The position numbers and the translations under genes are program-made. Of a stretch of 64,000 nucleotides of DNA, positions 5,244 through 61,943 are shown one piece after another (within the stretch, counting starts at the first letter, position 1; each line of letters begins with the position of its first letter). Under the pieces are notes generated by a model. It had not been told where the DNA came from. It was given only the letters and a program-made list of their open reading frames with translations, and did not search any database. The stretch is taken from positions 20,947 through 84,946 of the forward strand of contig CAYMZG010000002.1 in the NCBI GenBank assembly GCA_964394925.1, read 5' to 3'. The DNA comes from an uncultured Candidatus Saccharibacteria bacterium (GTDB lineage: Bacteria; Patescibacteriota; Saccharimonadia; Saccharimonadales; CAYLGV01).

Positions 5244-6560
5244 TTAGGCAATCTTTACGCACCCGCAAGAACCTGAGATGCGCTTGCGACCACTTGATGA
5301 TAACTTTTGCACTTTCGTTCTTACATTCTTCTTCTGACACAGTGGGCATTCTTTTGATACAAAGTCACAATCTGCATCATCATCTTCGTTGCTCGTGTCG
5401 TTGCCAATTTTTGATTCAGACATGCCAGATGGGCAAGAGTTTGAATTCTCTGTTTGCTTGGCCTTTGACCTATTCTCCTCAAGCGCTTCTAGATCACCAC
5501 GCGCAATTGCTTGGCGACTCGCTTCAATATAGCGAGCCGCTTCAAGGCCAAAGACACGACTATCTATTGAGTGATCCATAATTGCTTGATCAACCATATG
5601 AAAGCCCGAAAGATCATTCAGTAAACGTACCGCATCAATTGGTTTATGAATTACAGGGGCAGCTGAAATGAGCTCTTGGGTGATTTTCTTAACTTTGGGC
5701 TCAAACAAGGCTTCGCGCTCGCGGCACATATCGAGGTAATCCTGATAGTTTTGAGATGGTCGATCCTCACCAAAGAAAGTACCAGATATGCCATCCCATA
5801 GCTTTACGATATCTATCACGCCGTTTGGAATAAGATCATTGCGAATGAGGATGGGTATGTCAATAATCTCTGCCGGCGACAGACCAACATAATCCGCCCC
5901 GAGCGCCTGGCCAAGCTTGGCGGCAGTTGCTTCATCGTGAGGTACCTCCCCCTCAGCGGCAATTCCAGCTACAAAAGCCGACTCAAGGGCCAAGGCACCT
6001 TCTGACTTACCGATTAGTTGCAGAGAGCAGCTCATAGTCTCAGTAAAGAAACCCTGCTCCGGTAGATTCTCGGCCCGCGACACAACCAGCATGCTGTAGT
6101 TTTCAAAAAGACCATCTTTGAAGTACTGCTCTATGCGAAAAGCGTTGCGTGTTTCAGCCTCAGTACGCGCTCGCATAATTGGATGATTCGATGCAAAACG
6201 AAGGCTATTGGCTTGAATGGAGTCCATGATCTGTCCATGCTGGACCACTTTCCCTTCAGCTGTAATGTTCAATGGAACCTTTTCCATTACGTGGCCGGTC
6301 TTTATGGTACGCTCAATGACGTCGGTGCGAACATTGATCTCAACCATATGTTCTGCTTCTTTGTCGCCTTCGTAATATGCTCGATCGATGCCTTGCTTCA
6401 AGTTCTCAATGGGGCTTTCAACAGGAAGCGCCTCAATACTAGTTGCCTGATTCGCAGCAACTTGACCAATGAATGTACCTGCCCGTAACCGAACCTCAGA
6501 ATCAACCTCCATCTCGGAGGCAACCCTTGTTTTTGGAAGTTCGGCACTGGCTACTGCCAT
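5244..6560 (-). CDS. Hypothetical protein with Cys-rich C-terminal tail (CPLC...CGC)
   Basis: 438-aa uninterrupted ORF, no recognisable family; C-terminus 'CDFVSKECPLCQKK...SGSCGCVKIA' looks like a zinc-ribbon. Confidence 0.4.
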   Translation of the reverse strand: MAVASAELPKTRVASEMEVDSEVRLRAGTFIGQVAANQATSIEALPVESPIENLKQGIDRAYYEGDKEAEHMVEINVRTDVIERTIKTGHVMEKVPLNITAEGKVVQHGQIMDSIQANSLRFASNHPIMRARTEAETRNAFRIEQYFKDGLFENYSMLVVSRAENLPEQGFFTETMSCSLQLIGKSEGALALESAFVAGIAAEGEVPHDEATAAKLGQALGADYVGLSPAEIIDIPILIRNDLIPNGVIDIVKLWDGISGTFFGEDRPSQNYQDYLDMCREREALFEPKVKKITQELISAAPVIHKPIDAVRLLNDLSGFHMVDQAIMDHSIDSRVFGLEAARYIEASRQAIARGDLEALEENRSKAKQTENSNSCPSGMSESKIGNDTSNEDDDADCDFVSKECPLCQKKNVRTKVQKLSSSGRKRISGSCGCVKIA

Positions 6561-6779
6561 AAAAATACCCCTGTCCCTTTATAAAACAGAGGCTACGAAA
6601 AAACGTTACCGCTCCTGCTCGAGAGACTTACCCCGTGTCTGGCTTGTGATGGTGCTTTCGGCTTCACTTACAGTTGCGGCACAGCTCAGGATTCTCACCT
6701 GATTCCGGTTATTTGTTATGTTAACTATTTAGTAGTGTAGCACGCGCGGCACACACTACATGTAGTAGTTTTAACTATT

Positions 6780-12031: not shown

Positions 12032-13450
12032 ATGAAGAACAACGCCTCGGCTGTTTTCTCACTGTTTCTGATTGTCGGTGACTTCTTGGCATTAGTGGCC
12101 GCCTTTGCTGTGGCCTACTTTATGCGCTTCCGTTGGTTCGCCACACCCGGCACATCGACTGTCGCTGGACGTACTTACATTATTACTATTATTAGTGTGT
12201 TGCCGCTTTGGATTCTGGTAAATGGGCTGCTCGGCCTCTATAACCAGAGTGTTTATGATCGCCGCTTCCGCGAGATTGGCCGCCTGCTATTTGGTTCGTT
12301 CCTCGGCATTCTCATGGTGATTGGTTATGACTTTATGACAGAGGGCAAGCTGCTGCCTGGCCGCCTCGTGCCACTGTACGGCCTCATTATTGGCTTCACG
12401 TTTTTGGTTATTTTCCGCTCAATTGCCCGCTGGATCCGACATGCCCTGTTTAATTACGGTGTGGGCATCAGTAATATTTTGATTGTTGGTGACACGGCCG
12501 CCAGTTCCGAAATAGCCCGTATTATGTCTGATACGCGTAACACGGGGGTACGTATTGCCGGCATCGTGGACCATGACTCAAAAGATAAGTTCAAACACTT
12601 TAACAGCTTTGCCGAAGCGCTAGAGCAACTTGCCGAGGCACCGCACGGTATTATTCAGACCGAGCTGTACAAGTCTGCCGAACGTAACGACGAAATTCTA
12701 CAGTACGCCCAGACCAATCACATTTCGTACCGCTTTGTGCCTGGTAATAGTGATCTATTTGTTGGCAATATCACGGTTGAATTATTTGCAGGGCTGCCTG
12801 TTATTGCAGTGCACCAAACGCCGCTTATTGGCTGGGGACGCATCTTAAAACGCCTGTTTGACCTCGTTATAAGCCTCTGTTTACTTATTTTCTTGGCGCC
12901 ATTCCTTTTATTGATCGCTATTGTAAATAGAATTTGGGGTGGCGGTGTGTTCTTCAGGCAAGATCGCCTTACCCGTTTCAATAACACCTTCCGAGTTTAC
13001 AAATTCCGTACGCAATACAAGAAATATGACGGCACCACACCCGAAGAAGCCTTTGAGATGATGGGAAAACCAGAGCTAGCAAAAACGTACCGTGCTAATG
13101 GTGACTTTCTCGACAAAGATCCTCGTATCACTCCAATTGGACGCTTCCTGCGTAAAACCAGCTTAGACGAATTGCCCCAACTCATTAATGTCCTTAGGGG
13201 TGATATAAGTTTGGTGGGGCCCCGAGCGCTTATCCCTCAAGAACTGAATAAGTACGAGAAACGTCATAAGATCCTGAGCGTAAAGTCCGGATTAACTGGC
13301 CTGGCGGTGATTTCAGGGCGCAGGGATATCAGTTTCGAGGAGCGCCGTACGATTGATATGTATTATGTTCAGAATTGGTCATTTTGGCTTGATATCACCA
13401 TTTTACTTCGCACTATTCGTATTGTTATAAACGGCTCTGGAGCAAAGTAA
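12032..13450 (+). CDS. Polyprenyl-phosphate glycosyl-1-phosphate transferase (bacterial sugar transferase, WbaP/CpsE-like initiating enzyme)
   Basis: 472 aa; N-terminal TM region; C-terminal '[14 protein letters not shown]...[21 protein letters not shown]' bacterial sugar transferase domain. Confidence 0.85.
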
Positions 13451-13454
13451 TCTC

Positions 13455-14567
13455 ATGCAGGCTAATGCGCCGAAAGCCGAGCCGCACCGAATCGCCATTG
13501 TGCATGACTGGCTAATTGCGGGTGGGGCTGAACAGGTAGTTGCTGCCCTTCACGAAATGTATCCAGGGGCGCCGATCTATACGTCGTATGCGACTGATGA
13601 GTGGCGTGAACGCCTCGATGGCAAAGTTGTAACGGGTTTTTTGCAGCATTTCCCACGCCTGCGCAAATATGTACCCTTCTTGCGTGCCTGGTGGTTCTCG
13701 CATTTAGATCTGTCTGGTTACGACCTAGTAATTAGTACTTCTGGGGCCGAAGCGAAAGGCATACGTGTGCCTGCTGGCGTAAAACATATCAATTATTGTC
13801 ACGCCCCAACACATTACTACTGGAGCCGTTATGACTCCTATATGGAAAACCCGGGCTTTGGCCCTTTCGACTGGCTAGCCCGGCTTGGCCTACGCCTGCT
13901 GGTTGGGCCAATGCGTCGCTGGGATTACAAAGCCGCCCAGCGCCCCGACGTTATGATTGCTAATTCTACACACATTGCCCATGAGATTAAGAAGTACTAT
14001 GGCCGCGACGCACAGGTTATATTCCCTCCAGTCGATGTCGAGAAGTTTGCTCCCGCTTCCGGCAGCAGACCAGTTAAGCGACACGGGTTTATTATTACTG
14101 GCCGGCAAACACCCTATAAGCGCGTCGACCTTGCTGTGTTGGCATGCTCGAAGCTCAACCTACCGTTAACCGTATACGGCACGGGGCCCGAGCACGAAAA
14201 GCTCAAAGCCATGGCCGGCCCAAGTGTAACGTTTGCGGGTTGGGCCGCTCGCGAAGATGTAACGAAGGGTTTGCAGACGGCCGAAGCGTTTTTGTTCCCT
14301 GGTGTTGACGATTTTGGCATTGCTCCCGTTGAAGCCCTAGCGGCTGGCACACCGGTTATTGCCTACAAAGCTGGTGGTGCCCTGGATTACGTGAAGCCAG
14401 GTGTAACCGGTGAGTTTTTTGAGAAGCAGACGGTTGAAAGCTTAATGGAATGCCTTAAGGCTTTTTCACTAACAGATTTCAAACCGGCTGAAATCTCAGA
14501 AAGCTCTAAACAGTTTAATGTCGCAATCTTTCAAAAGCATATGCGGCATTTGATAAACTCTGGGTAG
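13455..14567 (+). CDS. Glycosyltransferase family 4 (GT-B, group 1)
   Basis: 370 aa; C-terminal 'FPGVDDFGIAPVEALAAGTPVIAYKAGGALDYVKPGVTGEFFE' E-x7-E type motif. Confidence 0.75.
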   Translation: MQANAPKAEPHRIAIVHDWLIAGGAEQVVAALHEMYPGAPIYTSYATDEWRERLDGKVVTGFLQHFPRLRKYVPFLRAWWFSHLDLSGYDLVISTSGAEAKGIRVPAGVKHINYCHAPTHYYWSRYDSYMENPGFGPFDWLARLGLRLLVGPMRRWDYKAAQRPDVMIANSTHIAHEIKKYYGRDAQVIFPPVDVEKFAPASGSRPVKRHGFIITGRQTPYKRVDLAVLACSKLNLPLTVYGTGPEHEKLKAMAGPSVTFAGWAAREDVTKGLQTAEAFLFPGVDDFGIAPVEALAAGTPVIAYKAGGALDYVKPGVTGEFFEKQTVESLMECLKAFSLTDFKPAEISESSKQFNVAIFQKHMRHLINSG

Positions 14568-14632: not shown

Positions 14633-15607
14633 ATGAAGAAATCAATTGCTGGCATAAATGGCTTTGGTCGCTTCGGGCTTCATTTGCTGCGATACTGGTC
14701 TGAACAAATAGACTCGGCAAGGTTTTCAATAAACTACATTAATGATTGCCGTCTTAGTCTTGCCGATATAGAGGCAATACTAGCCACTGATCGATATTTT
14801 TCTAATCATAACTACACGTTTGAAGAAAATGCTATACTTATTCACTTAAAGAATGGCTCAACTCATCGAGTTGAGTATACCAATGACAGTGATAGTGATA
14901 TAGCCTGGGTAGATAATGTTGAGTTATTTTTTGAATGTAGTGGCCAGCATACGGCTAATGATGATGCGCGACTCTTTATTGGCAAAAGAACACGCCATGT
15001 GCTCGTCTCTGCCACCATTGGCAAGCCAGATTTCATAGCTATTTATGGCTATAATCACCGAGAGTTACCAAGAGATCGTCACTTATTGTCGTATGGTTCA
15101 TGTACGGTAAATGCTTATGTGCCGATTGCCGCAATGATCAATGATGAGTTTGGGGTTATCGACAGCGATGTTAATGTTATCCATAATGTTCCTGAATACC
15201 AGTTGCAGAACTTTGACACGCTTAAACGTAAAGCATGCACCTTGCAGGCTGCTGCTCCAATGTTGTTGCCATTCATACACAACGACAACTTCTTAGTGAA
15301 TTACACCCTTGTACCTTATAGCAACGTATCAATAATGGACTTTCGCTTCAGGCTCCAAAACCATAAAGACAGGGATATCAAACAAGCTTTACTGCAAGGC
15401 ATAAGTGGTGGTGTATTAAATGACCTGTACGGGGTTGTGCAGAATGATAATGGCCCAGAAGAACATAAATTTACCACCGCTTCGGCTGTACTTGTAGAGT
15501 CGAGTATTCAACTTGTTGGTGACAATCTTTATTTTCAGGCATATTTTGATAATGAGAACTCGGTAAATAGATACTTTGATATAGGAAACTACCTAGCAAA
15601 TGGATGA
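14633..15607 (+). CDS. Divergent glyceraldehyde-3-phosphate-dehydrogenase-family (GAPDH-fold) dehydrogenase
   Basis: 324 aa; 'GINGFGRFG' NAD-binding start, catalytic-Cys block 'SCTVNAYVPIAAMINDEFGV', 'NVIHN', 'AYFDNENS' all align to GAPDH landmarks; markedly AT-rich relative to neighbours. Confidence 0.6.
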   Translation: MKKSIAGINGFGRFGLHLLRYWSEQIDSARFSINYINDCRLSLADIEAILATDRYFSNHNYTFEENAILIHLKNGSTHRVEYTNDSDSDIAWVDNVELFFECSGQHTANDDARLFIGKRTRHVLVSATIGKPDFIAIYGYNHRELPRDRHLLSYGSCTVNAYVPIAAMINDEFGVIDSDVNVIHNVPEYQLQNFDTLKRKACTLQAAAPMLLPFIHNDNFLVNYTLVPYSNVSIMDFRFRLQNHKDRDIKQALLQGISGGVLNDLYGVVQNDNGPEEHKFTTASAVLVESSIQLVGDNLYFQAYFDNENSVNRYFDIGNYLANG

Positions 15608-16334
15608 ATTAATGACCGAAAAAGTTGATGTGATCTTATTGTGTGGCGGTAAAGGTACGCGTCTACGTGATCTCATAAACGACAATCTGCCAAAATCACT
15701 GTTTAGGGTTGGTGGGCAAGAGTTGATACGGTACAGTCTCGATTCACTTGATGCACCATGTATCGAGAATGTAGTATTCGCGGTTGACTATCGAGCAGAG
15801 ATGATGAGCAATTGGCTGTCTGAGCAGTCATTTCCTTTCAATGTGCATCTCTCTAAACAGCGTAGACCGGGCATTACTGCAGCGATTGAAGCAGCTCTCC
15901 TTAAAACTGCAGCACCATTAATTGCTATTTGTAATACGGATGAGGTAAGGACTAATTTCACAATAACTCAACTATTAACCGCACATAGCACATTGGGCCA
16001 GCCCGCCATTATGTTGTCTACAATTAGTGGGAATTTATACCGACATCGAGTTTTGAATATTGATAACAGTGGCTTGATAATGAGCAGCGATTTGAAGGAT
16101 CAGCAATATAGAGAGAGGCCAGAGATTAGAGGTCTGGTGAACTGTGGTTTTTTATTATTTGAACGAAGTGCATTTGACTTGATCGATCTTGATCGGGGGG
16201 GAGACTGGGGTGCCCTTATTGACCCCCTTGTTGCACAACACAAAATGGCAGCATTGGAAATTGATAAAGTCAGATACTTCAATGTTGGTACGCCAGAGGA
16301 ATATGAGGAAGCCGAGAGCTACTTTACCTCGTAA
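15600..16334 (+). CDS. Sugar-phosphate nucleotidyltransferase (NTP_transferase family)
   Basis: 244 aa; 'VILLCGGKGTRLRDL...LPKSLFRVGG' nucleotidyltransferase signature; overlaps the upstream gene by 8 nt; AT-rich. Confidence 0.6.
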   Translation: MDELMTEKVDVILLCGGKGTRLRDLINDNLPKSLFRVGGQELIRYSLDSLDAPCIENVVFAVDYRAEMMSNWLSEQSFPFNVHLSKQRRPGITAAIEAALLKTAAPLIAICNTDEVRTNFTITQLLTAHSTLGQPAIMLSTISGNLYRHRVLNIDNSGLIMSSDLKDQQYRERPEIRGLVNCGFLLFERSAFDLIDLDRGGDWGALIDPLVAQHKMAALEIDKVRYFNVGTPEEYEEAESYFTS

Positions 16335-16366: not shown

Positions 16367-17725
16367 ATGGAGGGTCTCGTGGACGCATCAATCGCTGAAA
16401 TCTTTAAATCATATGATATACGCGGCAAGGTTGGCACACAGCTGACCACCGAAACTGTTCGAGATATTGCACGGGCCTACGCTGATTGGCTGCCAACCGA
16501 AGGGACGGTGGCAGTGGGCCACGACATGCGCCCTGACTCCGCCGAGTTGGCTCACGCTTTCATGGAAGGCTTGCAAGCACAAGGCTATGATGTGTGGGAT
16601 ATTGGCCTCGTTACGAGCGACATGATTTATTTCGCTGTTGGCAAATGGAACCTCGCCGGTGGCGCAGTCATTACGGCCAGCCACAACCCGGGCGCCGACA
16701 ACGGCATTAAGCTGTACCGTGATCAGGTTATAGCCGTTGGCTTAGATGCTGGGCTTGCCTCAATTCGAGATAAATATTTAGCCGCTGATTTTAAGCCCGC
16801 CGCCGAAAAGCCAGGGACCATTACGCAGAAATCGATCACTGATGATTGGGTTGAGCACTGTCTGAAGTTTGTTCATGAACTACCTGCTTTTAACATCGCC
16901 ATCGATGCTGGTAACGGCATGGCCGGTGAGATTTTGCCGCACATTTTGCCAAAACTTCCCCTAAAAGCACAGCAAATGTATTTCGAGCTAGACGGCACGT
17001 TTCCCAATCATGAGGCCAACCCCCAGGTTGTCGAGAATCTTCGAGATCTTATAAAAGTAGTGATTGATGAAGGCTATGATTTTGGCATTGCCTTCGACGG
17101 CGACGGCGACCGCGCAGTGTTTGTAGACGATAAAGGCCGCCCAGTGCTCGGCACTGATCTACTCACCATGATCGCTAAGTTGTACCTAAATAAATACCCC
17201 GGCAGCAAGATCGTGCATGATGTACGCACCAGCCGCGCCACTCAAGAGTTCATTCGTGAATTTGGTGGCGAGCCAGTTCGCACTAAAGCTGGTCGCGTTA
17301 ACATTGGCAGCCTCATGCGCGAAGTAGGTGCACCGTTTGGTGGTGAGACCACCGGGCACATGTTCTTTAAAGAGAACTATGACGCCGACTCGGGTTTAAT
17401 AACTGCTTTGGTTGGTATGCAGGCCCTGGCCAACAGTGGCAAAAAGCTTTCTGAATTGGTTGACTCATACCGTACCTACGTTATGGTACCCGAAATCAAT
17501 CTCCATACCAGTGTTAGCAAGGATGAGGTGTTTGCCAAACTCAAAGAACTGTTCGCCGAAGGTGAGTTCGACGAACTCGATGGCCTGACCGTAAACTATC
17601 CTGATTATTGGTTTAACTTACGGGCGAGTAACACCGAACCAGTTATGCGCTTGAATGCCGAGGCCAGAACACAAGCTCAGCTCGATGAAGTCGTTGCAAA
17701 AGTCACACAGGTAACGGGTCAGTAA
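16367..17725 (+). CDS. Phosphomannomutase/phosphoglucomutase (alpha-D-phosphohexomutase)
   Basis: 452 aa; active-site 'TASHNPGADNGIK', metal loop 'FDGDGDR'. Confidence 0.85.
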   Translation: MEGLVDASIAEIFKSYDIRGKVGTQLTTETVRDIARAYADWLPTEGTVAVGHDMRPDSAELAHAFMEGLQAQGYDVWDIGLVTSDMIYFAVGKWNLAGGAVITASHNPGADNGIKLYRDQVIAVGLDAGLASIRDKYLAADFKPAAEKPGTITQKSITDDWVEHCLKFVHELPAFNIAIDAGNGMAGEILPHILPKLPLKAQQMYFELDGTFPNHEANPQVVENLRDLIKVVIDEGYDFGIAFDGDGDRAVFVDDKGRPVLGTDLLTMIAKLYLNKYPGSKIVHDVRTSRATQEFIREFGGEPVRTKAGRVNIGSLMREVGAPFGGETTGHMFFKENYDADSGLITALVGMQALANSGKKLSELVDSYRTYVMVPEINLHTSVSKDEVFAKLKELFAEGEFDELDGLTVNYPDYWFNLRASNTEPVMRLNAEARTQAQLDEVVAKVTQVTGQ

Positions 17726-17753: not shown

Positions 17754-18773
17754 ATGAATATATTAGTTACGGGTGGAACTGGTTATATAGGCTCCCATGT
17801 AGTTGTTGAGCTCGTAAATGCTGGGCACACCCCTATCATCGTCGATAACTTCAACAATTCACGCCCTGATGTTTTGCAAAACATCACTTCCATCATCGGC
17901 AACCAGCCAACCTTCTATGAGCACGACTACGCGGATGTTGAGTTCCTTAAACACCTTTTTGTAAAAGAAAACATAGAGGGAGTTATACACTTTGCAGCAT
18001 ATAAGGCTGTTGGTGAGTCGGTCGAAAAACCTATTAAATACTATAAGAATAACGTTGCTGGTTTAGTGGCACTACTTGAGGCAATGGAAGCATGCACCGT
18101 TCAGAACCTTGTATTTTCTTCTTCTTGTACGGTATATGGAGATACTGATGCCCAGCCACTCAATGAAGGATCTACTATTCAGCCGGCGAACTCACCATAT
18201 GGGTCAACAAAACAGATGGGTGAGCGGATTATTTCAGACGTAACTTCTGCCAGCAAGCAGCTAAAAAGTGTGTATCTGCGCTACTTTAACCCAATCGGAG
18301 CTCACCCTTCATCAAAGATCGGAGAGCTTCCTCTTGGGAGGCCAAGCAACTTAGTACCATTCCTAACACAGACAGTGGCAGGCTGGCATCAGGAACTTAC
18401 CGTGTTCGGGAATGACTATCCGACCATCGATGGAACCTGTGTCCGTGACTACATACATGTCATTGATCTCGCTAAGGCACATATTAAGGCAGTTGAATTC
18501 TTGTCGAAGAAAAAGCCAAGTTTCATTGATGTGTTTAATGTAGGGACCGGAAACGGCAAGAGTGTCCTGGAGGTCATAGAAGCCTTTGAAGCAGCTACAA
18601 ATGAGAAAGTACCGTATAAGATTGGGCCCCGTAGATCAGGTGATGTCGTAACCGCTTACGCAGATACAACAAAGATTAAGCAAGTACTGAGGTGGCATGC
18701 CGAAAAATCACTAGAAGATTGCCTCTTCGATGCATGGAACTGGCAGAAAACCCTAACCAAATCTGAGGTATAA
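17754..18773 (+). CDS. galE: UDP-glucose 4-epimerase
   Basis: 339 aa; 'ILVTGGTGYIGSH', 'YGSTK' SDR catalytic motif; GalE length. Confidence 0.8.
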   Translation: MNILVTGGTGYIGSHVVVELVNAGHTPIIVDNFNNSRPDVLQNITSIIGNQPTFYEHDYADVEFLKHLFVKENIEGVIHFAAYKAVGESVEKPIKYYKNNVAGLVALLEAMEACTVQNLVFSSSCTVYGDTDAQPLNEGSTIQPANSPYGSTKQMGERIISDVTSASKQLKSVYLRYFNPIGAHPSSKIGELPLGRPSNLVPFLTQTVAGWHQELTVFGNDYPTIDGTCVRDYIHVIDLAKAHIKAVEFLSKKKPSFIDVFNVGTGNGKSVLEVIEAFEAATNEKVPYKIGPRRSGDVVTAYADTTKIKQVLRWHAEKSLEDCLFDAWNWQKTLTKSEV

Positions 18774-18776
18774 TAA

Positions 18777-19780
<1,004 letters not shown>

Positions 19781-19781
<1 letters not shown>

Positions 19782-20338
19782 TGGGTCAGTCAACGTTTGA
19801 GGTAGAAAAGACCACCATTCAAGGCCTATTCACCGTGAAGTTTAAAGTTTTCGAAGATGATCGTGGCTCGGTAATGGAGTTTTATCGCCAGTCTGAATTC
19901 GAAAAAGCAGGCTTGCCAAGTTTGGGCGAAAGACCACAGGTGAATGCACCGATGACCGTAAAGGGTGCCTTAAGAGGTGTGCACGCCGAGTTCGCACACA
20001 AACTGGTGTCAGTTGCAGGCGGTGAAGTCTATGCCGTGATTGTGGACCTTCGCAAAGAGTCTGAAACCGCAGGAAAATGGCAATGCTTTACCCTGCGCCG
20101 TGGTGAGGGACTTTTTGTATCAAAAGGCCTTGGCAATTCATTCCAATCAACAAGCAATGAACCATCCGTATATCTCTATTACTTTGAAGAGGAGTGGTTC
20201 CCTGGCATGCCTGGACTAGCCTGTAACCCACTCGATGAAGATTTGGCAATTGATTGGCCAATAAAACATGGTGAGGGCATGATCATCTCTGAGAAAGATC
20301 AGAATAACCCTTCTCTTAAAGAAGTGTTGGGGGCGTAA
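19781..20338 (+). CDS. rfbC: dTDP-4-dehydrorhamnose 3,5-epimerase
   Basis: 185 aa cupin; start overlaps the rfbB stop (ATGA-type coupling); sits between rfbB and rfbD. Confidence 0.8.
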
Positions 20339-21192
20339 TGGACGATTCAAAAATATTCATCGTTGGTGCTAACGGTCAGCTTGGGCAAGCCTTGCAAGCA
20401 CAATATCCTAATGCTCAAAAAGCTGATATTAATGAGCTCGACATTACCAGCCGCGAATCCGTCTTAGGCTTTGATTGGTCGGGAATTCAAGTCATTTTGA
20501 ACGCCGCTGCCTTTACCAACGTTGATGGTGCCGAGACCGACGAGGGCCGCGTGGCTGCCTGGAAAGTTAACGCCACGGCCGTTGGCTATCTGGCTGAGGT
20601 TGCCCGAAAACACAGCATGACACTCGTGCATATCTCAACAGACTATGTGTTTGACGGCACAAAAGATCCTCACACCGAAGATGAGGCTTTTGCGCCCCTT
20701 TCCGTATATGGCGCCAGTAAGGCCGCTGGCGATCTGCTCGTTGGTCAGCTCGAAAAGCATTATATTCTGCGCACCAGCTGGGTTATTGGTGAGGGCAAGA
20801 ACTTTGTACGCACCATGCTCGGCTTGGCCGAAAAAGGCATTTCACCCTCTGTTGTATCGGATCAGATTGGACGTTTGACGTTCACAAGTGAGCTGGTGCG
20901 AGCCATCGTGCATTTATTAGAGAAAGGCGCCACGTTTGGCACCTACAACGTTAGCAACGACGGCCCATCAGTGAGCTGGGCAGAGATCACTCGGCGTATA
21001 TTTAGCCTCTCAGGCCATGACGACCTCACTGTTACCGATACTACGACCGCTGAATACTACGCTGGCAAGGAGGGCATTGCACCACGACCGTTACAGAGCA
21101 CGCTTGACCTGAGTAAGCTGCAAGCCACGGGTTATTCATCGAATAACTGGGAAGATGATCTGAATTCATATATCGAAAAGGAGCTTTCATAA
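20338..21192 (+). CDS. rfbD: dTDP-4-dehydrorhamnose reductase
   Basis: 284 aa; '[12 protein letters not shown]', 'YGASKAAGD'; ATG overlaps the rfbC stop. Confidence 0.8.
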
Positions 21193-21193
21193 C

Positions 21194-22057
21194 ATGAAAG
21201 GTATTGTATTAGCCGGCGGCTCAGGCACACGCCTCTACCCCATTACTAAAGGCATCAGCAAACAGCTCATGCCCATCTACGACAAGCCCATGATCTATTA
21301 CCCCATCAGCACACTTATGAGTGCAGGTATTCGAGAGATTCTCATTATCACCACGCCGCAAGATCAGTCGCAGTTTCAACGACTCCTTGGCGACGGCTCG
21401 GATTGGGGCATTAGCCTTTCGTATGAAGTGCAGCCAGAACCCAAGGGTTTGGCGCAGGCCTTTACCATTGGCGCCAACTTTATTGGCATAGACAAGGTAG
21501 CTATGATTCTGGGCGACAACTTGTTTTATGGCCCTTCTATGGAAGAAAGTCTTAAAGGCCTCACCGACATCGACGGCGCTGTTGGTTTTGCCGCCCAAGT
21601 GACCGACCCAGAGCGCTACGGTGTGTACGAGTTTGACGAGAATATGAACGTGCTGTCGATTGAAGAAAAGCCCGCCCAGCCGAAGTCTAACTACGCCAAC
21701 TCAGGTTTGTACTTTTGTGACAATGAAGTGGTTGAGATTGCCCGCAATGTGCAACCAAGTGAACGCGGTGAAGTCGAAATCACCTCTGTGCTCGATGCCT
21801 ATTTGCAACGCGGCAAATTGAAGGTTTCGCTCTTAGACCGTGGTACGGCGTGGCTCGACACTGGTACCTTTGAGTCGATGAATGATGCCTCGGAGTACAT
21901 ACGCGTGATCGAACATCGCACCGGCATTAAGATTGGGTGCCCGGAGGAGATTGCATACCGTGAAGGGTTTATCTCTGCCGAACAATTACAAGCATTAGCA
22001 AGTGGTTTAGTTAAATCAGGTTACGGTAAGTACCTGGTGGCATTACTAGAACAATAG
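21194..22057 (+). CDS. rfbA: Glucose-1-phosphate thymidylyltransferase
   Basis: 287 aa; '[18 protein letters not shown]', 'LGDNLFYG'. Confidence 0.9.
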
Positions 22058-39759: not shown

Positions 39760-40563
39760 TTACAGATCCTCCGCAAAGTGTGGCGCACTACGTTTGAAGT
39801 ATAGAACACCAATAAGTACGAGAACGAGGGTTATGCCGTAAGGAATGAGCCGAGCATAGTGATTACCAAAAAGGCTATCTATGGTAACGGTGGAGTGTGA
39901 GACTAGGCAATAACGCGCATCTTGTACTGCGGTGGCAACCGGGTTCAATATTAAGATCTTCTGGTACTGAACGTTGGTTATTTTTGAGATTGGATAGATG
40001 ATTGGGGTGGCGTAAAAACCAGCCTGCATGATGACCTCCCAAATGTAGCTCATGTCACGGTATTTCACGAACATGGTTGCCAAAATAAGAGATAGGCCAA
40101 GTGCTAGTAGGTAGAGCTGGAGTAGTATGAATGGAAATAACACAACTGATCGCATAAGATCTACATGATTAATAACCATGAATATAGCGATCACGAGAAG
40201 TGTTAAGCCAAGGTTAATTAGAGCCGACACACTACTAGAAATAACAATCATCCAACGCGGAATACGAATCTTGCGAATAAGATCGCCACGCCCCACAATC
40301 GATCCAAGGCTCTGGCTGGTCATTTCGGCAAAGAAGTTCCACATCACCAGCCCAAGTAATAGGTAAACGGGAAAATGCGGGATTTCGGTGCCAAGTTTCA
40401 GAAACTTCACAAAGACAATGTACAGAATTACAAAGAGCAGGAGTGGTCGCAACAAAGACCATGTATAGCCCAAAACCGACCCCTGGTACCTTAACTTGAA
40501 GTCAGTCCTCACCAACTCGGCCAAAAGCGCCCTATTCTGTTTTGAAAACAACTTTTTCATCAT
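39760..40563 (-). CDS. ABC-2 type polysaccharide exporter permease (Wzm-like)
   Basis: 267 aa, 6 TM; paired with the Wzt-like ATPase. Confidence 0.8.
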   Translation of the reverse strand: MMKKLFSKQNRALLAELVRTDFKLRYQGSVLGYTWSLLRPLLLFVILYIVFVKFLKLGTEIPHFPVYLLLGLVMWNFFAEMTSQSLGSIVGRGDLIRKIRIPRWMIVISSSVSALINLGLTLLVIAIFMVINHVDLMRSVVLFPFILLQLYLLALGLSLILATMFVKYRDMSYIWEVIMQAGFYATPIIYPISKITNVQYQKILILNPVATAVQDARYCLVSHSTVTIDSLFGNHYARLIPYGITLVLVLIGVLYFKRSAPHFAEDL

Positions 40564-56327: not shown

Positions 56328-58592
56328 CTAACCACCACAGCCATTTGGATTACTCACACCCGGAGGTACGGTGAGGCCATTCTTAAAGGGGTCAACATTA
56401 GCGTGGTCCCAGCCACTATAATCACCCGGGAAGGTGTTGAAGTGAAGGTGTGGCCCGGTTGATATTCCGAGACTGCCCTGCTCACCAATCTGTTGACCTT
56501 GTTTAACTTGGTCGCCTTCATGGACCATCATAGAGTTCATATGACCATAGCTTGTCCCAAACTTAATAGATTCGTGTTTTATAACAACAAAGTTTGGTCC
56601 ATATCCTCCTGCCGGCCCCGCCTTTACCACCACGCCATCGGCTGCCGCAAAAATCGGTGTTTCACTGGGCGGGCCACTGTTTGAAATATCAATTCCTGGG
56701 TGTCCACCCGGACCACCAAAGCACTGAGTAATATAGCTCTTTTCTATTTTTTCGGGCCATGAGAACGTGCCGCCTGTTGGGCCCTGCTGACCACCCTGAC
56801 TACAGCCTCCACCTCCGCCACCAGATCCATTGCCGGCAACCGGCATGCCTGATCCGAACTTGGCCACCGCGGCATGGGCGGCATCAACGCGAGTTTTATG
56901 AAATTCCTGAGGCGGTTTGGTTTCTGGTGTCGGGCCTTTGTTGTTTACTATAATTCCGCGGTGTGTCTCGTAGTAGATCTCGATAAGTTGTGTAGCCTTA
57001 TCAATTATATCTTCCCCTGGGTTTGGTGTTTCAGCGTCTATCTTTTGTATTCGTTCCAATAATGGTTTGTATTTATTCTGCAGCTCCCACATTATATAAT
57101 CAAGCTGCAGGCCTAGATCAGACACGGGCTTGCCTTGATCAGATGCCATTTTGTTTAAGGGGTCTTGTCTGTCATGGAATGACCATTGGATAAGTCCATA
57201 CCCTCGCCCGTCAATCGTGGCGTCTCCTGTTGTGCCAGGTTCAAGCGCTCGTGGGTTAAGACCCGATTCCTCTGTCATGTTTCCAATAAAACCCCCCGCC
57301 ACTGCTGGCGCAAAGCCTTTGCCAATGAAGAAGTTGAATATCTTCTCGGCATTCTCACCGCCAACTAACGTGGTGCTGCTAGTCCCGCCGCTACCACCAC
57401 AAGTACAGCCACCCCCATTTCCGCTTTTTGTTGCGCTATCATTTCCCATATTCGCTTTTGCAGCCGTTATTTTTGCCGAAGAAGCTTCAATTTGAGTTTT
57501 GAGGGCTGGATCAGCGTTAGCTGCCTGCTCAACTTTATCAATAATTGCCTTTAATTGATCTTCGCCTGTGAAGAGCGCGATATCAGCCCCGCTTTTTATT
57601 GCTTCTAAGGCACTGTCGGCTAGCGCGCCAGGTCCTCCCAAGCCACCCGCCGCCAAGTCATCTGTAATAATAATGCCATTAAATTGATACTCATTTTTTA
57701 GTAAGTCGTAAGTTGCCTTACTCTTACTGGCTGGTACACCGTTTGTGAGCCCAGGAACACTATAATTTCCTACCATCACCCAAGCCCCAGTGGTGTTGTT
57801 GGCTAAAAGCGTTTGATACGGTTTAAGATCGAGCCCTTTTAGTTCATCTAGGCTTGGTGATGAGCCAGCAACTTGGTCGGAATTCACCGTTGTTCGGCCA
57901 ATGCCCGGAAAGTGCTTGTATACTGGCGTAATGCCACCGGCCTTTAGCCCTTCAGCGTACGCTCCGGCTTTTTCGGCAATAACATCAGGGTTGTTAGAAA
58001 ACGCTCGTTGTATGTTACCAATCGCCGGACTATTTGGGCTGTCAATGTCTACTACCGGGGCGGCATCGAACGTACCACCAATCTCTTTAATTTTTGTGGC
58101 CGTGTCGGTGCCAAGCTTCTTTACCTGATCCACCGACATACCTCCCATTGCCTTGGCGCTCGGGGTGCCCAACTTCAGTCGGTCAACTTGACCACCCTCC
58201 TGGTCGAGTCCCACAAACGGTGTAGGACTAAACTTTGATTTAGCAGCATTAATCTTTGCCCCATCAAAAAAGGGAGTATTCACAAAAAAGCCACCAACAT
58301 GGTAGGTGCTAACAGCATCATTAGCTTGTGCTTCGCTTGTGACGAGCGGAATCATCATCTGACCAATTTGGTCTCGCAGACCAGTGAGCGCGGCTGGTAC
58401 ATTACTATTCTTTTTACCCACATCACAGGCCACAACATCTTGATACATGGTATGGTCGCCATAAATTGCCTTACTCTCGATATTGGCGTCTGCATAGGCG
58501 ATTGTACTGACTGTCGGCAGAAGAATGATTAAAATTGAAATCAGAAGAGTGCGAGCCACCGTGCGAAGCGCTACCAATAGCCTGCGGATCAT
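56328..58592 (-). CDS. Secreted three-domain cell-wall hydrolase: GH3 beta-N-acetylhexosaminidase (NagZ-like) + phage-tail-lysozyme-like domain + M23 (LytM) metallopeptidase
   Basis: 754 aa; signal/TM 'LLISILIILLPTVSTIAYA'; GH3 blocks 'GLDQEGGQVDRL', 'KHFPGIG', 'NGIIITDDLAAGG'; Gly-rich linkers; 'FIGNMTEESGLNP...GRGYGLIQWS' lysozyme-like block; M23 'HPGIDIS' (HxxxD) and 'GPHLHF' (HxH). Confidence 0.7.
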   Translation of the reverse strand: MIRRLLVALRTVARTLLISILIILLPTVSTIAYADANIESKAIYGDHTMYQDVVACDVGKKNSNVPAALTGLRDQIGQMMIPLVTSEAQANDAVSTYHVGGFFVNTPFFDGAKINAAKSKFSPTPFVGLDQEGGQVDRLKLGTPSAKAMGGMSVDQVKKLGTDTATKIKEIGGTFDAAPVVDIDSPNSPAIGNIQRAFSNNPDVIAEKAGAYAEGLKAGGITPVYKHFPGIGRTTVNSDQVAGSSPSLDELKGLDLKPYQTLLANNTTGAWVMVGNYSVPGLTNGVPASKSKATYDLLKNEYQFNGIIITDDLAAGGLGGPGALADSALEAIKSGADIALFTGEDQLKAIIDKVEQAANADPALKTQIEASSAKITAAKANMGNDSATKSGNGGGCTCGGSGGTSSTTLVGGENAEKIFNFFIGKGFAPAVAGGFIGNMTEESGLNPRALEPGTTGDATIDGRGYGLIQWSFHDRQDPLNKMASDQGKPVSDLGLQLDYIMWELQNKYKPLLERIQKIDAETPNPGEDIIDKATQLIEIYYETHRGIIVNNKGPTPETKPPQEFHKTRVDAAHAAVAKFGSGMPVAGNGSGGGGGGCSQGGQQGPTGGTFSWPEKIEKSYITQCFGGPGGHPGIDISNSGPPSETPIFAAADGVVVKAGPAGGYGPNFVVIKHESIKFGTSYGHMNSMMVHEGDQVKQGQQIGEQGSLGISTGPHLHFNTFPGDYSGWDHANVDPFKNGLTVPPGVSNPNGCGG

Positions 58593-61500
58593 TTCGACGG
58601 CGCCTTTCCAATAGTCTCCACCGCCTTGTCCACAAGTGGACCATAATTTGTTGGGTGTATGCCATCCGGTGTGTATGGTATTGGCGGTGCAATACCAGCG
58701 TAATCTATGACCGTAACGCTGTGGCTACTAGCAAACTTTGCCAATAGATCAGTCTTGCCTTTGCCATGATCCCCGAGCGAATTGAGGTAGTAGTTCACCC
58801 AGAATATCTTGGCGTTAGGGGCATTTGCTTTAACCTTGTCGTACGTTGTTTGCAGGCTTGAGTTAAAGGCGTCATCCCCAGCACCTAGGTCATTGGTTCC
58901 GAGTGCTACTACGACCGCTCCGGCATTCGACATGATGGCTTTGTCGGCGTCCATTTGCTGGATGCCACCAGGGCTTGGTGGTTCTCCGGTCATGTGCCGT
59001 GACACCAACCCATTACTCGTAACACTCCAGCCATTGGCTTGCAGTTTGGTATCTAGGCCCGCAGCCTTGGCGCCCACCGTATAGGAGTCGCCCACCCAGT
59101 AAAGATTGGCATTACTTGCCGATGAACCATTGGTTCCGGTGTTGGCTGTGCTGCCACTGCCACCCTCGGGTGAATAGGCATTGTCACCGGTATAGCCGTA
59201 CAGACCACCAATGTTACCCATCACGCGACTGTCGAAGATTGCACAGTTGTAAATTTTGTCTGCGGCAGCGGGGTCCATCTCTTTCTCCTTGATGGTCCCG
59301 TACACTTTTTCCCAGAATTTGTCGCCATTGCGCATAACTTCCCAGTCGAGCGACTTAGGATCCAGACCTATATCACTCACATTACTACTTTTCGATAAAT
59401 AATCTGGGTCAAGTGGATCCAGACCTTGGCATTGTGGAGGTATGTCGTATTTGTCGACACCGGCCCAGTCTGATATATCTGAGGCTTTTCCTGGATCTGC
59501 CGCAAAGGCTCTGCCACTTAACATATTTCCAAAAACCGTAGGCAGGCTGCTGAGGCTTGTAAATAGGCTACTGATCTGCTGGGTTATTGGCTTGTTGCTC
59601 ACAGCAAAAAGAGTGCTTGCCGCAAAAGAATCGGGATTATCGAGTGACGCATAACGATCGAATAACGATTCGCTTGCTTTCTGCTCGTTATCATAATTAG
59701 TGGCTAACTTATTTGTATAATCAAGCGATGCCTTAGTTGATGCTGCACCCCCTGATTGACGAGTTGACGCCTCTGCTTGAGCTGCACCCCCCGCGACAAG
59801 CAAGTTTCCAATTCCTGGAGACGAGCCATCGAACATTGGTCCACCACCAAGCACACCGACCAACTTCATCATAAGTGCGCCTATTTGTGATTGAACATTC
59901 TTTCCGAATTCGGTCTCAGCCGCGAAACCTACCAATGGCTCAGTAACCTTGCCAATCAAATCCGGTATAAAGTTCGAAACCCATTCAACGCCAGGTATTT
60001 TTTTGACTCCACGTACACCACCAGCAACTACGCCTATAAAAGGCTTAAAATTTTTCTCATATACATTTGACAGCATCGCCGCATTACCACCGTTTCCTGG
60101 ATTTTGATCATCACAATACCAGGAAAAATCACTAAATGAGCGTTTTGATGGCTCTTTTTCGCAATATGCTTTTTTGGCCACTTTATCTGCATCGCTAGTG
60201 CCAGCACTTCTGCCTGTTGCCTGCAACCACCCTTCGCTATTGCCAATATTTTGCGTTGTCGCAAAAAAGTCTTGTAATTGATCCCCAACCAATTCACCCG
60301 ATTTCATTTGATCACTTGCAATTGAATAGGTAGCAAACAAACCAATTAGCTGGGCTCGTTTCGCATTTTTTACCATCATAGATAGCTTGCTAGTTTCCCC
60401 ATTGCCAAATAGATCATCTACCCTTTCCATCCATTTTGCGATCGTCCATATTTTATCCGGGCTGGGTATTGGTGCGGCACTCTGTATTACCTTACCAATC
60501 TCTTGACCAGTCACCTTGGCAATAAGTGTGTAAATGAGGCGCTTGGATATGCTGGACCCCTCAAGTATCTTAGCGGTTTCCTTGCTCAGGCCCTTGTCCG
60601 CTTCGCCTTCCACGGCATTTGTTAATAGCTTCTGAGTCTCGTCCTTAAGATCACCCGACACCTCGTTCTCAGCTGCCTTTTGTGCGGCCTTTGCCTGCTT
60701 GCCTTCATCGTCTTTTGGCTCTTTCTCTGGCAAATCGTCGCCACCACTCCCATTCAGCCCATTCTGGGGGTCGGCCACATCACTCGATCTAGCGCAGCTA
60801 CCATTTGAAAAGATACATTTAAGTAAATTTGCAGTATTTGGATTACGCCCAAAGAAAATATCTATCATCTTGGCATATAGCTGGTCTTTACGAGCTTGTA
60901 TACCTTTCGCGAGTTTATCTCGTGTTTTCTCGAATAATCGCCATGACTTAATGCCCGCAACACTCTCAACATCTTTGCGTACATGTCGTCGCTTGAATAC
61001 TCTGTACCATGGGACCTCAGAGTCGACAACCTCTTTTACGGCTTTGCGCGCTGCTTTGTGTGTGTCGAACTTATCGACCACAAACATTCTTTCCAAATCT
61101 TTGTCGGGTATTGCTGATAGTTTCTGTGCAATATTGTTTGCACTGATCGGCCCGCCGTTATCGGCATCTAATAAGTACTTTCCAACCAGATCGGGATGTA
61201 TCTTTTCTAGTGCGGTTATACGCGCGGTGGATATGTTTCCCTGGTTATCAACTATGCTAACAAATGATATGCCCTGCTTGCCAAAAACACTTTCCTCAAA
61301 CTTATTTTTACGGAGGGTTGCATACCAATCCTTAAGCGGATTCTTCCCGTCGCCTACTTTATCACCCTTAAAAAATAATGTTTCCCCATCGGTTTTTCCC
61401 TCATATTCAGCAACGCGCATTTTTATATATGCTTTTGTTAGGCTCTTGTTTCGGGTATCGAGGGACGCCTTAAGTCGCTTGCTAGTATGAGCTTCTGTAT

Positions 61501-61909: not shown

Positions 61910-61943
61910 ATTTGTGTCTGCTTTCCCGAATCATCTCCTTAGA

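Follow-up and report, generated by a model that had tools for sequence, protein, structure and literature searches.

We identified, in a 64-kb window of Saccharibacteria DNA (the whole stretch that was analysed), a gene at positions 14633-15607 of the + strand that encodes a strongly diverged protein with a genuine glyceraldehyde-3-phosphate dehydrogenase (GAPDH) fold, as confirmed on its structural model. The protein belongs to a GAPDH-like clade for which we coin the name GAPL, and its gene is followed by that of a nucleotidyltransferase of the NTP_transferase family (PF00483). From the analyses combined, we tentatively propose that GAPL oxidises D-erythrose 4-phosphate (E4P) to 4-phospho-D-erythronate and that the neighbouring transferase activates this acid as a nucleoside diphosphate (NDP) derivative for the decoration of a surface polysaccharide, a reading that we favour but would not yet call probable. 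The likely substrate class is a phosphorylated four-carbon acid sugar, not a hexose-type NDP-sugar; which substrate is used, in which direction the reaction runs, which nucleotide is attached and what becomes of the product are inferred.

The gene is an ATG-to-TGA frame of 324 codons, as a first-pass annotation had claimed, and the strand opposite it is closed by many stops in the same register. The motifs quoted in that annotation are all found: GINGFGRFG (residues 7-15), SCTVNAYVPIAAMINDEFGV, NVIHN and AYFDNEN. We checked the GAPDH landmarks with HMMER alignments to solved GAPDHs and with an L-INS-i alignment to S. aureus GapA and Acinetobacter Epd (annotated records recovered from the phage-set matches mentioned below), and they had been aligned correctly: Cys157 corresponds to Cys149, His184 to His176, Asp38 to Asp32 and YFDNE to WYDNE. 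The divergence noted at first sight is indeed strong, identity to solved GAPDH and Epd proteins being about 19-24%, while the protein is only modestly shorter than housekeeping enzymes (324 aa vs 336 and 341 aa in the two references), with a net loss of ∼13-15 residues in the S-loop region. The match to Pfam Gp_dh_N barely exceeds its threshold (33.3 vs 31.7 bits), and at E≤0.01 there is no Pfam match to Gp_dh_C. The protein does not reach the cut-off of the type I GAPDH model TIGR01534 (93.3 vs 367.2 bits) or of the Epd models TIGR01532 and NF010058 (75.5 vs 530.6 and 66 vs 539 bits), and falls far under that of every remaining GAPDH equivalog model in NCBIfam. Neither Semialdhyde_dh, of the aspartate-semialdehyde dehydrogenase (ASADH)/ArgC type, nor Aldedh, of the GapN type, gave a Pfam or NCBIfam match at E≤0.01, and a phmmer search of the PDB returned GAPDHs only (top E 1.7e-19).

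An AlphaFold2 model computed from a 49-sequence family alignment reached a pLDDT (predicted local distance difference test) of 93.7 and a pTM (predicted template modelling score) of 0.90. Foldseek aligned it with many GAPDH and Epd chains at template modelling (TM) scores of 0.82-0.89 and E values of ∼1e-27, the matches including the E4P dehydrogenases of E. coli and A. baumannii; the Rossmann N-domain and the alpha/beta catalytic domain superimpose on solved class I GAPDH and E4P dehydrogenase structures. Searched with tblastn, plasmids gave no match to the gene product, and the matches in the phage set, at ∼24% identity, were all to canonical GAPDH or Epd on bacterial contigs present as contaminants.

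Residue conservation was assessed over 55 clade members that cover every context class. No variation was seen in SYGSCTVNA, His184 or Asp38, and YFD(N/T)ENS is invariant or nearly so. The GxGxxG at residues 10-15, together with Asp38, marks an NAD-binding Rossmann domain; in GAPDH an Asp of the Asp32 type predicts NAD+ rather than NADPH and is typical of the oxidative direction. The Ps site, at which Thr179 and Arg231 bind the C3 phosphate of glyceraldehyde 3-phosphate (G3P) in GAPDH, is lost: the Thr179 position is Pro or Gln and the Arg231 position Leu, Val or Ile throughout the clade, whereas the GapA and Epd references keep Thr and Arg. The Pi-site residues Ser156 and Thr158 are kept. Residues specific to the clade are Arg199 (nearly invariant, Arg/Lys), Lys/Arg200, Cys202-Thr203-Leu204 and Arg238. 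The invariant CTL stands where GAPDH has STG (207-209) and lies at the start of a helix (model residues 203-211) whose GAPDH counterpart follows Ser-Thr208-Gly209; the equivalence of Arg199 with Arg195 is ambiguous by a few residues in the shortened S-loop. As judged from the alignments, the residues of GAPDH/Epd covalent catalysis (Cys, His and an NAD+-type Rossmann domain) are kept and the substrate pocket appears rebuilt. That the pocket is alike in all subclades argues for a single reaction across the clade.

Cys202 itself, in an R-K-x-C-T-L motif, is conserved in 55/55 members (100%) at the phosphate-site position of GAPDH Ser-Thr208-Gly209. It might serve in acyl transfer, or pair with Cys157 as a redox switch.

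Among 5.8 billion proteins searched there were 524 matches, the best 120 of which are 312-401 aa long (most 324-345), 43-53% identical to the window protein and either unnamed or automatically labelled ‘glyceraldehyde 3-phosphate dehydrogenase’ in Joint Genome Institute (JGI) records, a label that the present results correct for GAPL proteins. With a clade profile, 70 proteins were found at E≤1e-30 among 1.84 billion cluster representatives. Full-length members score 224-469 bits and are separated by a gap from canonical-length GAPDHs, which score at most 136 bits; the window sequence had been used to build the profile, and its own score follows from that. The window protein carries every clade-invariant residue (including SYGSCTVNA, His184, Arg199, CTL, Arg238 and YFD(N/T)ENS). 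Two proteins from the profile search, P0302 (2089 aa, with four GAPL-like stretches) and P0304 (509 aa), are unusually long and may be multi-domain fusions that could point to more partners.

Two invariant peptides gave 59 matches among 185,579 species (one genome each). Carriers include Patescibacteria/Saccharibacteria, Streptomyces geranii and Methylomirabilota; the cyanobacteria Leptolyngbya, Pseudanabaena and Prochlorococcus, and Pelagibacterales; Myxococcales, Defluviicoccus, and metagenome-assembled genomes (MAGs) of Woesearchaeota and Methanobacteriota; and isolates of Janthinobacterium, Cupriavidus, Paucimonas, Simplicispira and Pseudomaricurvus. Many of these groups, such as Streptomyces, Cupriavidus, Janthinobacterium and cyanobacteria, are known to have ordinary gap genes. 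GAPL is a rare, patchy accessory gene, not a housekeeping one, and its family is small and horizontally mobile. The GAPL class of the window forms one clade across three phyla in a neighbour-joining tree. Sequence comparison shows that GAPL is a clade of its own and not an Epd orthologue. A general Epd role for GAPL in cyanobacteria was also considered and rejected, the clade being far too rare.

The partner transferase matches PF00483 with 41.8 bits (threshold 21.2) and has the G-x-G-T-R signature in LLCGGKGTRL, but it passes no specific equivalog, the best being HddC at 61 vs 300 bits. In the window and in nine other loci (among them L002, L008, L011, L062, L116, L117, L115 and L010 in our numbering), from Patescibacteria, Streptomyces, Methylomirabilota and metagenomes, the GAPL and transferase genes overlap, abut or lie within two genes of each other; L116 and L117 hold these two genes only. 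The window's GAPL subclade is always paired with one orthologous NTP_transferase: identity to the window's transferase is 40-42% for the five class D transferases and 17.5% for the window's RmlA. A metagenome scan seeded with the class D transferases added ∼14 orthologues, most of which have no GAPL within the fetched flanks. Whether beside GAPL, a kinase, both or neither, these transferases form one compact orthogroup, which suggests one substrate. The only genes conserved across the transferase loci are the transferase (14 loci), GAPL (9), a DUF1537 kinase (6) and a NUDIX hydrolase (6), and a NudE-like NUDIX hydrolase adjoins the transferase in at least six loci. The PMM/PGM (phosphomannomutase/phosphoglucomutase), GalE and Rml genes of the window are not conserved beside the pair in other genomes. 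The transferase and the adjacent PMM were considered as a ManB/ManC-like unit; PMM is beside the transferase in no other locus, and this was rejected.

In the window, the two genes were described at first as overlapping by 8 nt, which is correct for a transferase start at ATG 15600; with a start at ATG 15612 they are separated by a 4-nt spacer instead. The ATG at 15612 matches the N-termini of orthologues and an independent gene call on an identical Logan contig, and the two genes are tightly coupled whichever start holds. Their GC content is 40.1% for GAPL and 43.2% for the transferase (37.5 and 39.8% at third codon positions), as compared to 52.0% for the neighbouring GT4 glycosyltransferase gene, 50.7% for PMM and 49% for DnaA. 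The pair is a compositionally foreign, low-GC two-gene cassette in a higher-GC operon. The earlier suggestion of a recruited paralogue that forms a two-enzyme activation module with the nucleotidyltransferase finds support in comparative genomics, the orthologous pair recurring across loci.

We collected 56 non-redundant GAPL loci and clustered, annotated and counted the neighbouring genes with custom hidden Markov models, taking ‘adjacent’ as ≤300 nt and counting more widely within 5 kb. The immediate neighbour is an NTP-using activating enzyme in 35/56 loci. An NTP_transferase of the window type is adjacent in 7 loci (9 within 5 kb), a TagD-like cytidylyltransferase in 9 (11 within 5 kb), an AMP-forming ligase in 6 (12 within 5 kb, often with an acyl carrier protein, ACP), an ATP-grasp ligase in 8 and a carbamoyltransferase in 3. 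DUF1537 kinases are adjacent in 2 loci (3 within 5 kb) and PdxA in 5; 13 loci have a phosphatase of the HAD or inositol-phosphatase type within 5 kb, and 8 have NeuB at that distance. Two unrelated nucleotidyltransferase folds adjoin GAPL without any kinase in 16 loci (7 NTP_transferase and 9 TagD-like). In one Patescibacteria MAG (L016 5041-7287), downstream of genes for a HAD phosphatase, NeuB and DegT, an ATP-grasp domain (aa 1-401) and GAPL (aa 409-748) share one in-frame 748-aa open reading frame (ORF), a Rosetta-stone link that could also reflect misassembly or the loss of a stop codon.

The loci with a TagD-like enzyme (class C) have a third conserved gene, encoding an N-terminal tetratricopeptide repeat (TPR) region and a LicD-type catalytic motif; 9/9 of its members match PF04991 weakly, and its top PDB match is FKRP (E 1.2e-6). 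FKRP transfers ribitol phosphate from CDP-ribitol. These loci often have an autotransporter gene next to them. Burkholderiales isolates (Cupriavidus, Paucimonas and Janthinobacterium; L043 6304-12083, L055, L041, L044 and L042) share a conserved block of a ∼990-aa autotransporter, the TagD-like cytidylyltransferase, GAPL and the TPR-containing LicD/FKRP-like phosphotransferase, which suggests phospho-X modification of the autotransporter or of a nearby surface molecule. A different cassette recurs near nonulosonic-acid genes in SAR11, Litoricola, Bacteriovoracaceae, Woesearchaeota and others (L029, L037, L026, L030, L023 and L035): an AMP-ligase, GAPL, an Antibiotic_NAT-like acyltransferase, DUF4910/DUF2172/HTH_47, an ACP and a 128-aa protein, often with an inositol-phosphatase-type enzyme. 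This cassette may resemble the genes of the Campylobacter jejuni Cj1295 region, which are associated with glyceroyl-modified pseudaminic acid. Literature searches found nothing linking GAPDH-like proteins to nonulosonic acids or to pseudaminic or glyceric acid.

Two further kinds of neighbour bear on the size of the substrate. In three loci (L060, L061 and L070, with a truncated fourth, L065) a ∼390-aa gene of the SBD_N+NBD_C (DUF1537) architecture abuts or overlaps the transferase gene on its upstream side. The top NCBIfam matches of these proteins are D-threonate kinase and 3-oxo-tetronate kinase, both under cut-off (134-137 bits for the full-length kinases vs the equivalog cut-off of 450). 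Four kinase-transferase loci have no GAPL. Elsewhere the two occur together: L009 has GAPL followed by a DUF1537 kinase, the Methylomirabilota locus L010/L071 has a split kinase, the transferase, and a convergent NUDIX gene and GAPL, and L115 has a short-chain dehydrogenase/reductase (SDR), GAPL (51% identical to that of the window), a DUF1537 kinase, the NTP_transferase and a convergent NUDIX gene inside a Wzm/Wzt locus. A strict alternation of GAPL and kinase was rejected on the strength of these loci, and we retain the two as parallel routes that may co-occur. The Methylomirabilota kinase lies in two overlapping ORFs (L010 4457-5330, L071 3838-4963) with GAPL on the other side, and may represent a frameshift, a pseudogene or a sequencing error. 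DUF1537 enzymes carry out C4 phosphorylation of four-carbon acid sugars (PMC12994016, PMC10580937); our literature searches found nothing linking DUF1537 to nucleotidyltransferases.

GAPL also adjoins pdxA, in three arrangements. The two genes are convergent and 0-39 nt apart in a Myxococcota MAG (L004 8001-10031) and three Defluviicoccus genomes, and GAPL is followed by pdxA in the same direction in Myxococcales (L058 9986-12126); the pdxA-adjacent loci include L017, L025 and L046. The GAPL-adjacent PdxA proteins pass the TIGR00557 cut-off (302-345 vs 290 bits). PdxA acts on a C4 acid 4-phosphate two steps after 4-phosphoerythronate, and a comparative survey of genomes reports Epd to be among the most frequent holes in the 1-deoxy-D-xylulose 5-phosphate (DXP)-dependent vitamin B6 pathway, with cyanobacteria and several deltaproteobacteria named (PMC9997740). 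GAPL could be the missing E4P dehydrogenase of this route in Myxococcota and Defluviicoccus lineages.

Our proposal for the reaction builds on these partners. The GAPL product should carry a phosphate ester, because two nucleotidyltransferase folds, a LicD/FKRP-like transferase and phosphatases adjoin the gene, and a carboxylate, because ATP-grasp ligases (one of them fused) and the AMP-ligase/ACP pair do so as well. Both groups would be expected in the product of an aldehyde dehydrogenase that uses a thiol and takes an aldose phosphate as substrate. A free aldehyde is expected in short aldose phosphates only, and G3P and E4P are the only known substrates of the GAPDH fold. We propose 4-phospho-D-erythronate because it is common to the DUF1537, PdxA, GAPDH-fold and partner-enzyme lines of evidence; GAPDH itself slowly oxidises E4P to 4-phosphoerythronate in a side reaction (PMC7041631).

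On this proposal GAPL would act on a short aldose phosphate, E4P from the pentose phosphate pathway being the likeliest, and oxidise its free aldehyde through a thiohemiacetal and then a thioester on Cys157, yielding 4-phospho-D-erythronate, as in the Epd reaction. The partner transferase would join a nucleoside monophosphate from an NTP to the 4-phosphate, giving NDP-erythronate, a step modelled on CDP-glycerate, CDP-ribitol and CDP-glycerol, and a further transferase encoded in the locus would then decorate or cap the polysaccharide with anionic erythronate phosphate. Elsewhere the DUF1537 kinase may feed the partner transferase, instead of or alongside GAPL, as salvage beside de novo synthesis, and the NUDIX hydrolase may control the pool of activated acid. 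In other subclades the TagD-like enzyme would activate the acid phosphate with CDP for transfer by the LicD/FKRP-like enzyme; the ATP-grasp or AMP-ligase/ACP enzymes would activate the carboxyl group for N-acylation of nonulosonic acids, a phosphatase taking off the phosphate; or the acid phosphate would pass to PdxA-dependent vitamin B6 synthesis.

Several observations weigh against this proposal. The window has no DUF1537 kinase, NUDIX hydrolase, PdxA or recognisable LicD/TagF-type transferase, so that the four-carbon assignment is carried over from relatives; a dedicated search for a LicD-like protein in the window also found none. The partner transferase resembles HddC/ManC sugar-1-phosphate enzymes more than LicC/CpgD types. 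Epd keeps Thr179, an RRAR motif and Arg231, none of which GAPL has, and phosphate recognition would need other residues, for which Arg199, Lys/Arg200 and Arg238 are candidates. Literature searches that combined erythronic acid with O-antigens or polysaccharides found no erythronate-containing glycan. Finally, 4-phosphoerythronate is a potent enzyme inhibitor (PMC7041631), and its deliberate synthesis would need tight coupling.

The rival explanation that we place foremost, and still consider unlikely, keeps the oxidation and shortens the substrate by one carbon: GAPL would oxidise G3P to 3-phosphoglycerate (3-PG) or 1,3-bisphosphoglycerate, the transferase would make an NDP-glycerate such as CDP-glycerate, and in nonulosonic clusters the acid would become a glyceroyl N-acyl group. 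Enzymes of this fold classically use G3P, CDP-glycerate made by CpgD is documented, with the suggestion by its authors that a dedicated phosphoglycerate supplier may exist, and the logic of phosphate plus carboxylate suits 3-PG equally. Yet 3-PG and 2-phosphoglycerate are abundant central metabolites, for which a dedicated enzyme seems needless, and GAPL has lost precisely Arg231 and Thr179, which bind the C3 phosphate of G3P. Moreover, what supplies the transferase instead of or beside GAPL is a kinase of four-carbon acid sugars and not one of a glycerate kinase family, adjacency to PdxA points to C4 phospho-acids, and the window transferase has no significant similarity to CpgD-type entries in PDB searches. 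Somewhat more doubtful is a sequential pathway in which GAPL oxidises a non-phosphorylated short aldose or hydroxy-aldehyde, a DUF1537-type kinase phosphorylates the acid and the transferase activates it. The loss of the canonical phosphate-binding residues agrees with this order of events, as do the gene orders GAPL-kinase-transferase in L115 and GAPL-kinase in L009, and the co-occurrence of kinase and GAPL in three loci, which counts against our own proposal, fits it too. Nucleotidyltransferases need a phosphate ester, however, and there is no kinase near the 7 GAPL-transferase and 9 TagD-like-GAPL loci; the four kinase-transferase loci in turn have no GAPL, the phosphatases beside the carboxyl-activating classes make sense only if the acid arrives phosphorylated, and to our knowledge free tetroses are not ordinary metabolites.

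We regard as improbable that GAPL works in the reductive direction, in the manner of ASADH/ArgC, turning an acyl phosphate, acyl adenylate or acyl-ACP into an aldehyde. Enzymes that make acyl phosphates or adenylates are often adjacent, and one is fused; Ser156, Thr158 and Thr203, all invariant, and the nearly invariant Arg199 (Arg/Lys) could form a kept anion site. Against this, the invariant Asp38 predicts NAD+ over NADPH, the context in the window includes no ATP-grasp or AMP-ligase, and the pairing with nucleotidyltransferases, LicD-like transferases, DUF1537 kinases and PdxA is left unexplained. Least likely of all, and to our minds hardly credible, is the other suggestion of the first-pass annotation, that of a housekeeping glycolytic GAPDH that happens to sit in a polysaccharide locus. 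The catalytic Cys and His and the NAD site are intact, the 64-kb window holds no second GAPDH homologue, and genomes of the candidate phyla radiation (CPR) are reduced. The thresholds, however, are failed widely (93 bits vs a 367-bit cut-off), the S-loop is truncated along with the loss of Arg231 and Thr179, and the clade is rare and patchy, occurring as an accessory gene in genera with normal gap genes. Its conserved partners are glycan-modification enzymes, the context shows no link to pgk or tpi, and the GC content is foreign.

The surroundings in the window are those of a polysaccharide locus, as first described, with glycosyltransferase and Rml genes in one + strand run followed by Wzm/Wzt (Table 1). 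A scan for promoters and terminators between 11.8 and 22.3 kb found no excess over shuffled sequences and was uninformative on operon boundaries.

Table 1. Features of the window. Positions are those of the whole stretch.
Feature	Position	Strand	Remark
438-aa ORF	5244-6560	-	
Cobalamin riboswitch	6635-6706	-	upstream of the 438-aa ORF
LexA-type DNA-binding-domain protein, 151 aa	10849-11911 region	-	overlaps 3′ end of GtrA-like gene
Polyprenyl glycosylphosphotransferase	12032-13450	+	upstream, same-strand run
GT4 glycosyltransferase	13455-14567	+	upstream, same-strand run
GAPL, 324 aa	14633-15607	+	GAPDH fold
Partner NTP_transferase (PF00483), 244 aa (ATG 15600) or 240 aa (ATG 15612)	15600-16334	+	
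PMM/PGM	16367-17725	+	downstream, same run
GalE	17754-18773	+	downstream, same run
RmlB, RmlC, RmlD, RmlA	18783-22057	+	downstream, same run
SDR epimerase, UDP-glucose dehydrogenase, FAD oxidoreductase, GtrA-like, DUF2142, four GT2s, methyltransferases	within 22058-44059	.	
Wzt (with Wzt_C)	38565-39812	-	
Wzm	39760-40563	-	
Wzy_C-like protein and another GT4	rest of locus, to about 44 kb		
dnaA-dnaN-recF	51-54.8 kb		
Cell-wall-degrading and secretion-like genes	56328-63869	-	

The DnaA protein is 77-82% identical to proteins from Candidatus Saccharimonadales and Patescibacteria MAGs, and the window, with its dnaA-dnaN-recF genes, is part of a Saccharibacteria (CPR) chromosome close to the origin. 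Some features of the window lie apart from the GAPL pair. The gene for the LexA-type protein points away from the polysaccharide operon, and its product may be a regulator of this region. The 438-aa ORF downstream of the cobalamin riboswitch (33.5 bits vs a gathering score of 31.5) has no Pfam match and may be an unrecognised B12-related transporter or enzyme. Beyond the origin genes, a 754-aa protein with GH3, phage-tail-lysozyme and M23 peptidase domains is followed by a 1106-aa ORF and then by a TraG/VirD4-like P-loop ATPase; these genes look like a cell-wall-degrading, type IV secretion-like apparatus, which might suit an episymbiotic life.

Oxidation of E4P by GAPL, if it occurs, would mean that a glycolytic fold has been repurposed as the first committed enzyme toward a nucleotide-linked tetronic acid. 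It would add a new activated building block to CDP-glycerol, CDP-ribitol and CDP-glycerate, predict a new anionic surface decoration in diverse microbes, including the hard-to-culture Saccharibacteria, and offer a candidate for the E4P dehydrogenase whose absence from the DXP-dependent B6 pathway of some lineages has long been noted. Doubtful as yet is the broader idea of a new pathway for NDP- or CDP-4-erythronate, with GAPL for de novo synthesis, the DUF1537 kinase for salvage and NUDIX for control of the pool, that would operate in several phyla on polysaccharides, nonulosonic acids and possibly autotransporters, and would replace the missing Epd in some lineages. Were it true, CPR bacteria, actinomycetes, Burkholderiales, cyanobacteria, SAR11 and archaea would all use the pathway and add erythronate phosphate or erythronoyl groups to glycans.

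The fold and the logic of a dehydrogenase with a nucleotidyltransferase (and a phosphotransferase) are of known kinds; the libraries and literature searched contain no description of the clade, of its altered pocket and systematic coupling to activating enzymes, or of the activated tetronic acid predicted here. GAPL shares with GapA (TIGR01534, PF00044+PF02800) the two-domain fold (TM ∼0.87), the Cys149/His176 dyad in S-C-T-x-N and x-x-H contexts, the GxGxxG/Asp32 NAD+ site and the C-terminal (W/Y)-(Y/F)-D-N-E motif. It differs from GapA in its lost Arg231 and Thr179, its shorter S-loop, CTL for STG (207-209) and the new Arg199, Lys/Arg200 and Arg238, and in being accessory, rare and tied to glycan-modification genes rather than to glycolysis. 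The structural match to Epd/GapB (PDB 2x5j, 2xf8 and 8zn1) is as good, the proposed reaction is that of Epd and, as expected for an Epd-like enzyme, some GAPL genes adjoin bona fide pdxA; unlike Epd, GAPL scores far under the cut-offs, is without Thr179, RRAR and Arg231, and occurs mostly in glycan clusters, not in B6 operons.

Among activating enzymes, the Caulobacter CTP:phosphoglycerate cytidylyltransferase CpgD makes CDP-glycerate, and its authors suggest that a dedicated enzyme may supply its substrate (PMC12275187, PMC13228409). CpgD sets a precedent for the nucleotide activation of a small phosphorylated hydroxy-acid within the same broad nucleotidyltransferase fold. Unlike the window transferase, CpgD is COG1213/LicC-like, acts in the synthesis of sphingolipid head groups and has no GAPDH-like partner described. 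The DUF1537/PdxA2 enzymes of tetronate catabolism and 4-hydroxythreonine recycling share the SBD_N+NBD_C architecture with the transferase-linked kinase, whereas the kinases found here keep company with a nucleotidyltransferase and NUDIX in biosynthetic-looking loci and not with aldolase or decarboxylase genes. The overall logic is that of TarI/TarJ (CDP-ribitol), TagD (CDP-glycerol), LicC/LicD and FKRP, in which an oxidoreductase leads to X-phosphate, then CDP-X and the transfer of phospho-X. These CDP-alditol systems use a reductase that makes an alditol, whereas GAPL has a GAPDH fold and would make an acid, and the window differs from them in its PF00483 transferase and in the absence of a LicD-like gene. 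The class C loci parallel the CDP-alditol systems, with a TagD-like enzyme, GAPL and a LicD/FKRP-like protein encoded side by side.

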